A stretch of 35,976 nt of DNA, taken from positions 1 to 35,976 of the forward strand of contig DASXGF010000271.1 in assembly GCA_036489275.1 (NCBI GenBank), written 5' to 3'. The DNA is from Myxococcaceae bacterium (GTDB lineage: Bacteria > Myxococcota > Myxococcia > Myxococcales > Myxococcaceae). Below the pieces are notes generated by a model, which did not search any database, had not been told where the DNA came from, and saw nothing but the letters and a program-made list of their open reading frames with translations. Position 1 is the stretch's first letter. Every line of letters starts with the position of its first letter. Shown here in pieces: positions 31,249 through 35,181 of the stretch. The translations under genes and the position numbers were made by a program.

Positions 31249-31400
31249 CTCGACCGCGGCCGCGCTGACTGCAGGCCGTTCGACGACACGCTGCGGACCC
31301 CGACTGCGGCCGCCCTCACTCGACCGCGGCCGCCCTGACCTCGCTGACTGCAGGCCGTTCGACGACACGCTGCGGACCCCGACTGCGGCCGCCCTGACCT
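31249..31400. repeat. Tandem direct repeat: two perfect 54-bp copies (31263-31316 and 31342-31395) within a ~70-79-bp duplicated unit
   Basis: cgctgactgcaggccgttcgacgacacgctgcggaccccgactgcggccgccct occurs twice with identical sequence. ctcgaccgcggccgc is also duplicated (31249-31263 and 31319-31333). There are four copies of GCGGCCGC[G/C]CT[G/C]AC (31257, 31308, 31327, 31386), and the last abuts the clpA stop. Confidence 0.9.
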
Positions 31401-33687
31401 ACACGGTCGCCGGAGCGACCGAGTCCGTCACCAGCACGAGCCCTCGACCGTCCGGGGTGACGTCGAACTTCGCCACCCCACCGGCCTGGAGCGCGCCGAA
31501 GAGGAGCGCCTCGGCCAGTGGCTTCTTCAGCGACTGGTCCACCATCCGGGCCATGGGCCGGGCGCCGAACGCCGGGTCGTAGCCGTTCTCCGCGAGCCAG
31601 GCGCGCGCCGCCGGCGTGAGCTCCAGGGTGACCTTCTTGTCCGAGAGCTGCGCCTGGAGGAGGCCGACCTCCTTGTCCACCACCTTGAGGATGGTCTCCG
31701 GGCCGAGGCCGGAGAAGAGGATCCACCCGTCGAGCCGGTTGCGGAACTCGGGGGTGAAGGTCCGTTCGATGGCCTCCTTCGCCTTGGAGGTGTCGAGGAC
31801 CTGGTCTCCGCCGCCGAAGCCGATGGTCTTGCTGCTCATCTCCCGGGCGCCCGCGTTGGTGGTGAGGATGAGCACCACGTTCCGGAAATCCGCCTTGCGC
31901 CCGTTGTTGTCGGTGAGCGTGGCGTGGTCCATGACCTGAAGCAGGATGTTGAAGAGGTCGGGGTGGGCCTTCTCGATCTCGTCGAGCACCACCACCGAGT
32001 AGGTGTGCTTCCGGACCGCGTCGGTCAGCAGGCCGCCCTGGTCGAAGCCCACGTACCCCGGGGGCGCGCCGATGAGCCGCGAGACGGTGTGCTTCTCGCT
32101 GTACTCGCTCATGTCGAAGCGGAGGAACTCCACCCCCAGCACCCGGGCGATCTGCTTGGCCAGCTCGGTCTTTCCCACGCCGGTGGGGCCGCTGAAGAGG
32201 AAGCTCCCGATGGGCTTCTCCGGCGAGCGCAGCCCGCTCCGGGAGAGCTTGATCGCCGAGACCAGCTCCTGGATCGCCGGGTCCTGCCCGAAGATGACGC
32301 TCCTCAGCGCCGGCTCGAGGTTGGCCAGCGCCTCGCGGTCGGAGTGCGAGACGCTCTTCTGGGGAATCTTCGCGATCTTGGCGACCACCGCCTCCACGTC
32401 GTGGGCGGTCACCCGGTGCGTGCGGTCCTTCTCGCCCCGGAGCCGGTCTGCGGCGCCGGTCTCGTCCACCACGTCGATGGCCTTGTCCGGGAGGAAGCGG
32501 TCGTTGATGTACTTGGCCGAAAGCTCGGCCGCCGCGCGGATCGCGTCCTCGTCGTACGTGACGTCGTGGTGCTCCTCGTAGCGGGACTTGAGCCCCTCGA
32601 GGATGAGCACCGTGTCCTCGACGCTCGGCTCGCCGACCTCGATCTTCTGGAAGCGGCGGGACAGCGCGCGGTCGCGCTCGAAGCTCGCCTTGTACTCCTG
32701 GTAAGTCGTGCTGCCGATGCACCGCAGCTTGCCGGACTGGAGCACCGGCTTGAGGAGGTTCGAGGCGTCCATGCTCCCGCCGGTGGTGGCCCCGGCGCCG
32801 ACGATGGTGTGGATCTCGTCGATGAACAGGACGGCCCCCGGCTGCTTCTGCAGCGCCTTGAGCACCGCCTTCAGCCGCTCCTCGAACTGGCCACGGAACT
32901 TGGTCCCGGCGAGCAGGGCGCCCATGTCCAGCGAGTAGATGACCGCGCCCTGGAGCGGCTCGGGCACCTTCTCCTCGTGAATCCGCAGCGCGAGCCCCTC
33001 GGCGATGGCGGTCTTCCCGACGCCGGTCTCGCCCACGTAGATGGGGTTGTTCTTCCGCCGGCGGCAGAGGACCTGGATGGTGCGTTCCAGCTCCTTCTCC
33101 CGGCCGATGAGCGGATCGATGCGGCCCTCCTCGGCCTCGACCGAGAGGTTCACGCAGTAGGCTCGGAGCGGGTCCTTCTGGGTCCCGCCCTCCTCCTCGC
33201 CGCCGAGCCCGCCGGAGCTCTCGCCCTCCTCCTCGCCCTCGGATCCCTTGGGGATGCCGTGGGAGAGGTAGTTCAGGAGATCCAGCCGGGTGATGCCCTC
33301 CTGCTGGAGGAGGAACAGGGCGTGGCTCTCGTCCTCGCGGAACATCGCCACCAGGACGTCGCCGCCCTCGATGACCTTCTGCTCGGCGGAGAGGGCGTGG
33401 ATGGCCGCCCGCTGCAGCACCCGCTCGATGCCGATGGTCTGCTGCGGCTCGGCGTTCACGCTGTCCGGGAGGCGCTCCACCGTCTCGGCCAGGAACTTCT
33501 CCAGCCGCTGGCGGAGCCGCTTCACGTTGGCCCCGCAGGCGACGAGGATCTTCTGGGTCTTGGGCTCGCGGGTGAGGGCGAGCAGCAGGTGCTCGAGCGT
33601 CAGGTACTCGTGACGCATCGACTTGGCGTCGGCGATGGCCTGCCGGAAGCTGGCCTGAAGCTCCTTCGCGATGAGCGGCGTTGCCAC
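31399..33687 (-). CDS. clpA: ATP-dependent Clp protease ATP-binding subunit ClpA
   Basis: GTG at 33687. Clp N-domain, two AAA+ modules with Walker A GETGVGKT and GPTGVGKT, and an acidic G/E linker. 762 aa, typical of ClpA. Confidence 0.95.
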   Translation of the reverse strand: MATPLIAKELQASFRQAIADAKSMRHEYLTLEHLLLALTREPKTQKILVACGANVKRLRQRLEKFLAETVERLPDSVNAEPQQTIGIERVLQRAAIHALSAEQKVIEGGDVLVAMFREDESHALFLLQQEGITRLDLLNYLSHGIPKGSEGEEEGESSGGLGGEEEGGTQKDPLRAYCVNLSVEAEEGRIDPLIGREKELERTIQVLCRRRKNNPIYVGETGVGKTAIAEGLALRIHEEKVPEPLQGAVIYSLDMGALLAGTKFRGQFEERLKAVLKALQKQPGAVLFIDEIHTIVGAGATTGGSMDASNLLKPVLQSGKLRCIGSTTYQEYKASFERDRALSRRFQKIEVGEPSVEDTVLILEGLKSRYEEHHDVTYDEDAIRAAAELSAKYINDRFLPDKAIDVVDETGAADRLRGEKDRTHRVTAHDVEAVVAKIAKIPQKSVSHSDREALANLEPALRSVIFGQDPAIQELVSAIKLSRSGLRSPEKPIGSFLFSGPTGVGKTELAKQIARVLGVEFLRFDMSEYSEKHTVSRLIGAPPGYVGFDQGGLLTDAVRKHTYSVVVLDEIEKAHPDLFNILLQVMDHATLTDNNGRKADFRNVVLILTTNAGAREMSSKTIGFGGGDQVLDTSKAKEAIERTFTPEFRNRLDGWILFSGLGPETILKVVDKEVGLLQAQLSDKKVTLELTPAARAWLAENGYDPAFGARPMARMVDQSLKKPLAEALLFGALQAGGVAKFDVTPDGRGLVLVTDSVAPATV

Positions 33688-33691
33688 GGTT

Positions 33692-34015
33692 CTAGATCTC
33701 CTCCGGTTCCATCGTCAGGCGAAGCGGGAACTCGTGCTCCCTGGCCAGCGCCTCCACCACCTCTATCTTCGTACGTGCCACGTCATGTGTATAAACCCCG
33801 GCGACGCCGATGCCCGAGTTGTGGACATGGAGCATGATGGCCACCGCGTCGGACTCGGACTTGTGGAACACCTCCCGGAGCACAGCCACCACGAAATCGC
33901 GGGTGGTGTAGTTGTCGTTGTGGAAGAGCACCTTGTAAAGCTGCGGCCGCTTGAGCTTCCGCTCGCTCTTGCTTTCCGTCTCGACTCCGCTGTCCGGGGA
34001 CTCGCGCTCGGGCAT
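33692..34015 (-). CDS. clpS: ATP-dependent Clp protease adaptor ClpS
   Basis: ATG at 34015 after AAGGTAGG. LYKVLFHNDNYTTRDFVVAVLREVFHKSESDAVAIMLHVHNSGIGVAGVYTHDVARTK is the canonical ClpS core. The stop lies 4 nt before the clpA GTG. Confidence 0.95.
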   Translation of the reverse strand: MPERESPDSGVETESKSERKLKRPQLYKVLFHNDNYTTRDFVVAVLREVFHKSESDAVAIMLHVHNSGIGVAGVYTHDVARTKIEVVEALAREHEFPLRLTMEPEEI

Positions 34016-34026
34016 CGGCCTACCTT

Positions 34027-35181
34027 CTAGTCCTTGAACCCGGTCTCTGCCCGCCATGCCGGCAGCCCCGCCTCGATGGCGGCCCGTTCATGGGCGAGGT
34101 AATCCCGGACCGCCCGGTCCAGCCCCCGGTGGAACAGCGCGTGGGCGCTGTAGGTGAGGCTGGGAGTGAAGCCCCGGACCAGCTTGTGCTCGCCGCCGGC
34201 GCCGGGCTCGAACCGGAGCAGGCCCCGCCGGACCACCTCGTCCATCCCGGCGTACAGGCAGACGTTGAAGTGGAGGAAGGGGTGTTCCTCGTAGCAACCC
34301 CAGTAGCGGCCGTAGAGCACCCGGTCGCTGGCGAGGTTGAAGGCCCCGGCCACGACCCGGTCCCCGGCGAGGGCCTGCACCAGCTCGACCCGGTGCCGGA
34401 ACCGCTCCAGCACCCGGGTGAAGAAGCGAGGGTTCAGGTAGCGGCGGCCCCAGGCGAACTTGTCCACGGTGGTGGCGTACAGCCGGAACGTCTCCCTCGC
34501 GTCGGCCTCGGCCAGCGCGTCGCCCCGGAGCACCCGGAGGGTGAGGCCCTGCTCGGCCGGGGCGCGGCGCTCGCGCTTCAGCTGGTTCCGCCGCTTGCTG
34601 GTGAAGCGCTGGAGGACGTCCTCCGGGGCACGGTACCCCTCGTTGAGGAAGTGGTACTGCACGCCGTGCCGGACGGCGAAGCCCAGCGGCTCCAGCGCGA
34701 GGGCCTCCCCCTCGGTGGGGAAGAGCACGTGGACGCTGGACAGCCGTTCCTCCCGGGCGAGCTCGAGGGCGCCGCGGGCGAGCTCCAGCGTCCGCGCCCG
34801 AGCGTCCTCCCCCGGAGCCACCAGGAACCGGCGCCCGGTGGCGGGGGTGAGCGGGGCGGCGACGACCAGCTTCGGGTAGTAGGGCACCCCGGCGCGCTCC
34901 GAGGCGTTGGCCCAGGAGAAGTCGAAGACGAACTCGCCGCTGCTGTCGGTCTTCCGGTAGGCCGGTGCGGCCGCAACGAGGCGGTGGCCCCTCCAGACGG
35001 TCAGGTGGCGCGGCTCCCACCCCGACGACGGCCCCACGCTGCCGCTCTCCTCGAGCGCCTCGAGCCAGCGCCACTCCAGAAAGGGGGCCGCGTCGTCGTC
35101 GACGAGGGCGTTCCAGGCCGCCTCCGGGACGTCGGAGATGGAGCGGAGGACCTTGAGCTGCGTCGGGAGCGACTGCGACAT
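34027..35181 (-). CDS. FemAB-like / DUF482-type GNAT-fold (acyl/aminoacyl)transferase-family protein
   Basis: ATG at 35181 (MSQSLPTQLKVLRSISDV...). The family-typical blocks, as I recall them, are PFLEWRWLEALEESGSV, GWEPRHL, YYPKLVVAAPLTP, SKRRNQLKRERR, LYGRYWGC and FEPGAGGEHKLVRGF. The stop lies 11 nt before the clpS ATG. Confidence 0.85.
   Translation of the reverse strand: MSQSLPTQLKVLRSISDVPEAAWNALVDDDAAPFLEWRWLEALEESGSVGPSSGWEPRHLTVWRGHRLVAAAPAYRKTDSSGEFVFDFSWANASERAGVPYYPKLVVAAPLTPATGRRFLVAPGEDARARTLELARGALELAREERLSSVHVLFPTEGEALALEPLGFAVRHGVQYHFLNEGYRAPEDVLQRFTSKRRNQLKRERRAPAEQGLTLRVLRGDALAEADARETFRLYATTVDKFAWGRRYLNPRFFTRVLERFRHRVELVQALAGDRVVAGAFNLASDRVLYGRYWGCYEEHPFLHFNVCLYAGMDEVVRRGLLRFEPGAGGEHKLVRGFTPSLTYSAHALFHRGLDRAVRDYLAHERAAIEAGLPAWRAETGFKD

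Follow-up and report, generated by a model that had tools for sequence, protein, structure and literature searches.

In a 35,976-nucleotide stretch of DNA from Myxococcaceae bacterium (the window; NCBI GenBank assembly GCA_036489275.1, contig DASXGF010000271.1, positions 1 to 35,976), a gene of the FemAB_like family (hereafter the Fem-like gene), clpS and clpA are read as one operon, and the trio as an old conserved unit. In the bacterial N-degron pathway, ClpS is the recognin, and the transferases that make its substrates are believed to be two, Aat and Bpt. A functional tie of the Fem-like protein to ClpS/ClpA is probable, and the best-supported reading, although not proven, is that the protein is most probably a transferase linked to the N-degron pathway. 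This reading is preferred because the operon is conserved, the Fem-like gene is separately linked to aat, it is nearly absent from genomes without ClpS, and its predicted fold belongs to a fitting class. An earlier sequence-only reading of the window had proposed a transferase that feeds ClpS, by implication in place of Aat or Bpt; the part drawn from gene context and fold is supported, but the part on replacement is not.

The source genome is a metagenome-assembled genome (MAG) of 760 contigs with 89.8% completeness, and the G+C content of the window is about 71%. The three same-strand genes, their coordinates and the 11-nt and 4-nt gaps between them, all given in the sequence-only reading, were reproduced on the minus strand (Table 1). 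The trio is read as an operon because the gaps are this short, both downstream genes have their ribosome-binding site at or in the 3' end of the gene ahead of them, and no terminator-like site was found inside the trio on the minus strand. For clpS, the ribosome-binding site AAGGTAGG is located 5-12 nt upstream of the ATG, and this start is also backed by homologues of the genus with an identical beginning (MPER...). For clpA, GGAGGAG ahead of the GTG sits within the 3' end of clpS. The open reading frame (ORF) of the Fem-like gene can be extended to a GTG at 35283, but homologues of exactly 384 amino acids give 100% coverage. A promoter scan of the locus gave no match, which is uninformative in DNA of such G+C content. 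In Myxococcus-like RNA libraries (4 runs, 4 studies), contigs span the upstream gene, the Fem-like gene, clpS and clpA at one locus (L065); these contigs are only compatible with co-transcription, as they cannot prove a single transcript and may hold DNA, and they are not counted as evidence.

Table 1 Positions of the trio and of other genes in the window
Feature	Position	Strand	Remarks
Fem-like gene, 384 amino acids	34027..35181	-	PF04339 FemAB_like (DUF482/COG3146); ATG at 35181, TAG stop 34029-34027
11-nt spacer, Fem-like stop to clpS ATG	34016..34026	-	Ribosome-binding site AAGGTAGG ends here
clpS, 107 amino acids, ClpAP N-recognin adaptor	33692..34015	-	PF02617
clpA, 762 amino acids, GTG start	31399..33687	-	TIGR02639; start 4 nt past clpS stop
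Macro-domain protein gene	1857-3821	+	
Asparaginase_2 protein gene	6305-7825	-	
DPP-IV/S9 peptidase gene	13058-15817	+	
2-oxoglutarate dehydrogenase E1 subunit gene	17550-20468	-	

The two partner genes were identified by their domain matches. ClpS matched PF02617 with an E-value of 3.7e-30, and its residues N33, D34, T37 and H65, which form the N-degron pocket, are conserved when 37 linked ClpS proteins are aligned; in E. coli ClpS, the pocket residues are N34, D35, T38 and H66. ClpA scored 1108.7 bits against the TIGR02639 equivalog (cut-off 993.15) and contains Clp_N, two AAA modules and ClpB_D2-small.

The Fem-like protein matched almost the entire PF04339 profile (positions 1-368 of 369; E 5e-133, 444.2 bits against a gathering cut-off of 27), together with a second, weaker match to Acetyltransf_6 in the GNAT clan. 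No match was obtained to PF02388 (FemAB) at E <= 1, to PF03588 (Leu_Phe_trans, Aat) or to PF04377/PF04376 (ATE_C/ATE_N, Bpt/Ate). Among 128 members of the family, the next Pfam families were LPG_synthase_C in 9 (best E 5.6e-6) and FemAB in 7 (weak, best E 0.0026), and ten longer members carried no additional Pfam domain, i.e., no fusion. The single protein had no match among PDB sequences, and the best PDB matches of the family profile were FemX (E 0.42) and Sbb17/Sba18. Using 128 diverse homologues, an AlphaFold2 model was built with a predicted local distance difference test (pLDDT) of 96.9 and a predicted template modelling score (pTM) of 0.94. The two-lobed GNAT fold of FemX/FemA is present in this model, and the top eight matches in an exhaustive structural comparison were all aminoacyl-tRNA-dependent transferases (FemX, FemA, Sbb17, MprF), so that the likeness to FemX-type enzymes, first suggested from sequence, was borne out in the prediction. 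As modelled, the Fem-like product belongs structurally with the Fem/MprF enzymes, as a soluble transferase with two lobes, and its donor is rather likely to be aminoacyl-tRNA.

Eight residues are invariant in the family alignment, including K333 and R336 of the motif GEHK-x-x-RGF in the C-terminal lobe, and H332 is nearly invariant. In FemX (F304-K305), Ate1 (Y303-K304) and the aminoacyl-phosphatidylglycerol synthases, the C-terminal lobe has a catalytic lysine preceded by an aromatic residue, and K813/K840 of MprF act in this lobe (PMC9351520). Judged by its place in the sequence, K333 could plausibly be the equivalent of this lysine. The isoelectric point of the family (median 7.3) is spread widely and is uninformative on tRNA binding, and a complex prediction for the Fem-like protein with ClpS scored 0.01, which says nothing for or against an interaction.

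As the sequence-only reading had suggested checking, the Fem-like gene is strongly enriched beside clpS in other taxa. First, PF04339 and ClpS matches were located by coordinate in 41 genomes of Myxococcales, the order of the window. Of the 33 genomes with a Fem-like gene, 22 have it immediately ahead of clpS in the same orientation, and these 22 cover five families and 10 of the 21 genera that carry the gene. The same tandem order was present at 52 of 80 named loci from species genomes, and the tandem loci come from Myxococcus, Corallococcus, Pyxidicoccus, Archangium, Vitiosangium and many MAGs. Inverted arrangements also occur: 8 loci, most of them with a Myxococcota label, make up one clade in which clpS-clpA is head-to-head with the Fem-like gene with 130-220 bp between them, and at one Polyangiaceae locus clpA is convergent with it, 184 bp off. 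Four loci with other labels, namely L058 (Comamonas sp. KCTC 72670), L062 (Proteobacteria bacterium), L090 (Opitutales) and L098 (Spirochaetaceae), fall inside Myxococcota clades of the Fem-like tree with the same gene order and are probably mislabelled or misbinned. Since L090 and L098 nest in a Myxococcota clade, they were not counted as other phyla.

Second, the trio itself recurs in distant lineages. When five distant 50%-cluster representatives (35-38% identity) were chosen blind to gene context, two of them, both from metagenome lineages, showed the Fem-like gene followed by clpS after 24-31 nt. In Leptospira meyeri, the Fem-like gene, clpS and clpA are joined by TAATG and ATGA overlaps, in L. 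kirschneri by 4-nt overlaps, and in two Dadabacteria-like MAG lineages they are separated by gaps of 10 nt and 1 nt. The flanks are different in each case, with a SpoIIE-type phosphatase and HSP20 in L. meyeri, an extracytoplasmic function (ECF) sigma factor in L. kirschneri, and an ABC-F protein and a 4HBT thioesterase in Dadabacteria. Because the flanking genes change from lineage to lineage, the trio itself is the conserved unit.

Third, the linkage appears in other layouts in Pseudomonadota, for which 111 genomes were sampled and 42 carried a full-length copy. In 13 of these 42, clpS was located within 8 kb on the same contig, as compared with about 0.4% expected by chance, and all 13 have the layout Fem-> ... 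<-clpA<-clpS. Eleven of the linked cases fall among the 22 rows of one Pseudomonadota clade of the Fem-like tree; a Rhodospirillaceae-named relative has the same layout, and the convergent layout is therefore taken as the alphaproteobacterial form. The genes between the Fem-like gene and clpA vary in this form (HIT, AzlC, PAP2, AAA_21 protein). Gammaproteobacterial loci have trxB-Fem-aat-infA, which faces clpA-clpS, and in genome G386 the Fem-like gene adjoins aat though clpS is on another contig. The neighbours of unlinked copies are diverse (NadE, GDPD, glycosyltransferase, IspD, aldehyde dehydrogenase, porins), and no other recurrent partner was found among them, which counts in favour of the N-degron reading.

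The distribution over genomes agrees with the linkage. Among 301 Myxococcota genomes, a strong Fem-like match was found in 215 of 272 with ClpS, as against 1 of 29 without it, and the sole ClpS-less genome with a match is a 75%-complete MAG. All four Myxococcota families without ClpS are also without the Fem-like gene. The Fisher p-value of this co-occurrence is 2e-16 over genomes, which are non-independent, and 0.026 over families. The tally takes in one unpublished genome, G220, on which no claim rests. As a separate observation, the 8 genomes of one Myxococcales family (f4), mostly 96-100% complete, gave neither a ClpS match nor a Fem-like gene.

In the proposed mechanism, the Fem-like product would take an aminoacyl group from aminoacyl-tRNA and would add a residue to, or otherwise modify, free protein N-termini, and this modification would alter whether ClpS recognises the protein. 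The enzyme would act beside Aat and Bpt as a further transferase and not as their replacement. The gene arrangement with its conservation across phyla, the fold class and the co-occurrence with ClpS are observed; aminoacyl-tRNA as the donor, protein N-termini as the acceptor and any effect on degradation are the parts that we infer. Taken as a whole, this chain, in which an aminoacyl-tRNA-dependent transferase of the ClpS/ClpAP N-degron pathway acts on protein N-termini, is held tentatively, with a probability somewhat below even.

Several points weigh against an N-degron-linked transferase. The Fem/MprF fold leaves both donor and acceptor undecided, as relatives act on peptidoglycan precursors, lipids, small amines and proteins. 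In Myxococcaceae, a second, well-supported clade of Fem-like paralogues never adjoins clpS (L010, L021-L024, L028, L030, L031, L076), and 29 of the 42 Pseudomonadota copies are not near clpS. Because infA and trxB belong to the proteobacterial block and are not N-degron components, a conserved neighbourhood alone is no proof of a shared pathway. The source genome has an aat of its own, and elsewhere the Fem-like gene occurs together with both aat and bpt, so that no vacant role is evident. As the Fem-like tree roughly follows the phyla, the linkage may trace to a few ancient events, and the counts are not independent; the real signal is that the linkage persists through inversions and turnover of the flanks. 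Finally, a 2011 prediction from plant-prokaryote comparative genomics for COG3146 and its plant member At2g23390, as a pterin-dependent enzyme, was tested and invalidated (PMC3223725).

The strongest alternative is a Fem/MprF-type transferase with a non-protein acceptor, such as a lipid head group, an envelope precursor, an amino acid or a small amine, whose place beside clpS-clpA would reflect co-regulation or inherited gene order. We consider it unlikely, though far from negligible. It draws on the closest structures, whose enzymes act on peptidoglycan precursors, phosphatidylglycerol and streptothrisamine, as well as on the infA and trxB genes of the conserved block and the numerous copies unlinked to clpS; silencing of a cotton homologue also reportedly affects lipid and jasmonate metabolism (PMC4488762). 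However, a tight and often overlapping coupling to clpS in at least three phyla with unrelated flanks would be hard to keep without selection, the Fem-like gene is nearly absent from ClpS-less genomes, and it pairs with aat where clpS is elsewhere (G386). No recurrent envelope or lipid gene was found beside the Fem-like gene at the loci examined.

Each of these structural relatives also differs from the Fem-like protein in sequence, architecture or setting. FemX of Weissella viridescens and the FemABX transferases of peptidoglycan branches (PDB 4II9, 1NE9, 1LRZ, 6SNR) share only 10-17% identity with it, and it is encoded outside any peptidoglycan gene context, next to clpS-clpA or aat. Compared with the soluble domain of MprF/aminoacyl-phosphatidylglycerol synthases (LPG_synthase_C; PDB 6LV0, 4V36, 9J8Q), it has no fused flippase domain or transmembrane segment, and no lipid genes are nearby. 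Sbb17 and Sba18 (PDB 9WQX, 9WQY) are aminoacyl-tRNA-dependent peptide synthases and presumably natural-product enzymes, for which the acceptor in the solved complexes is the small amine streptothrisamine, whereas the Fem-like gene is outside any biosynthetic cluster and has a housekeeping-like distribution. With Aat and Bpt, the protein shares the GNAT clan, the gammaproteobacterial block in which its gene directly precedes aat, and the kind of role proposed here, but it belongs to another Pfam family and has a larger, two-lobed architecture. Aat and Bpt are outside the 50 best structural matches of the model, which is no evidence that the folds differ.

A second alternative, which we regard as improbable, is an acyl-coenzyme A (CoA)-dependent N-terminal acyltransferase that masks free N-termini and so shields proteins from ClpS; it would then modulate the pathway without writing degrons itself. 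Such an enzyme would fit the GNAT clan and the Acetyltransf_6 match, homologues are named GNAT N-acetyltransferase in databases, and N-terminal acetylation prevents binding to plant ClpS1 (PMC11371169). Against this, the eight best structural matches all use aminoacyl-tRNA, and the secondary Pfam matches of family members are to LPG_synthase_C and FemAB instead of CoA-type GNATs. In addition, the stretch RFEPGAGGEHK (FE-x-GAxGEHK) does not strictly fit the canonical CoA motif A (Q/R-x-x-G-x-G/A), in a comparison made by eye that is indicative only.

In the last alternative, the source organism lacks Aat or Bpt and the Fem-like enzyme makes the ClpS substrates instead; this is very improbable and for aat largely refuted. 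The window indeed holds no aat or bpt, as had been noted before, and PF04377 (bpt) gave no match in the 89.8%-complete genome or in G315 and G386, where the Fem-like gene stands in front of aat. However, contig C351 of the source genome carries a canonical aat (E 3e-73), aat was also found in 5 of 5 other linked genomes tested and in 42 of 42 Pseudomonadota genomes with the Fem-like gene, and bpt is present in 38 of these 42 compared with 29 of 69 Pseudomonadota genomes without it. A complementary distribution of the Fem-like gene with aat/bpt was rejected as well, since the co-occurrence is positive. Because aat and bpt co-occur with the Fem-like gene, the argument from absence falls, and the link of the Fem-like gene to the ClpS pathway stays.

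Other neighbours of the Fem-like gene were also recorded. At Myxococcota loci without nearby clpS (L083, L084, L086), the opposite strand carries a trxB homologue 0.3-1.7 kb upstream of the Fem-like gene, and since trxB also stands immediately before the gene in gammaproteobacteria, it is a second recurrent neighbour. A HIT-family gene is directly beside the Fem-like gene at three non-Myxococcota loci (L119:10106-10930, L124:10133-10561, L153:5499-5954), at one of which aspS follows the HIT gene. HIT proteins act on aminoacyl-adenylate-type compounds, and this pairing may be a second, weaker association. In one metagenome contig (L152:4434-7176), the release factor 3 gene, prfC, shares 35 nt with the start of the Fem-like gene, and in the contig of P0174 it is located about 5 kb upstream of Fem-clpS. 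In some Myxococcaceae genera, the paralogue apart from clpS is the sole strong Fem-like match found. In the window, the genes bordering the trio gave no informative family match, and a convergent ORF past clpA has a PEGA-domain match. Several very long ORFs (e.g., 25865-29557, minus strand) have no Pfam match and overlap ORFs on the opposite strand, and they may be spurious owing to the high G+C content.

In conclusion, the direct and translationally tight operon ties the Fem-like gene to both the recognin and the unfoldase and not only to aat. In the literature searched, no paper assigns a function to DUF482/PF04339/COG3146/FemAB-like proteins or links them to ClpS. The plant homologue At2g23390 belongs to COG3146 according to PMC3223725 and has been found in a soluble chloroplast fraction (PMC3531887). 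In a 2024 review, the formation of chloroplast N-degrons by amino acid transfer, and the enzymes that would carry it out, are listed as an open question (PMC11371169). As the family has plant members, it provides a concrete candidate for such a chloroplast enzyme. If the N-degron reading is true, ClpS would be served across phyla by a third enzyme family, through which a wider range of N-termini could be made unstable, and this family could account for ClpS substrates without canonical degrons. The widest extension is doubtful: PF04339 would then be a third widespread class of aminoacyl-tRNA-protein transferases, writing or editing the N-degrons of ClpS in Myxococcota, Spirochaetota, Dadabacteria and Proteobacteria, and through At2g23390 it could be the enzyme that forms N-degrons in plastids.

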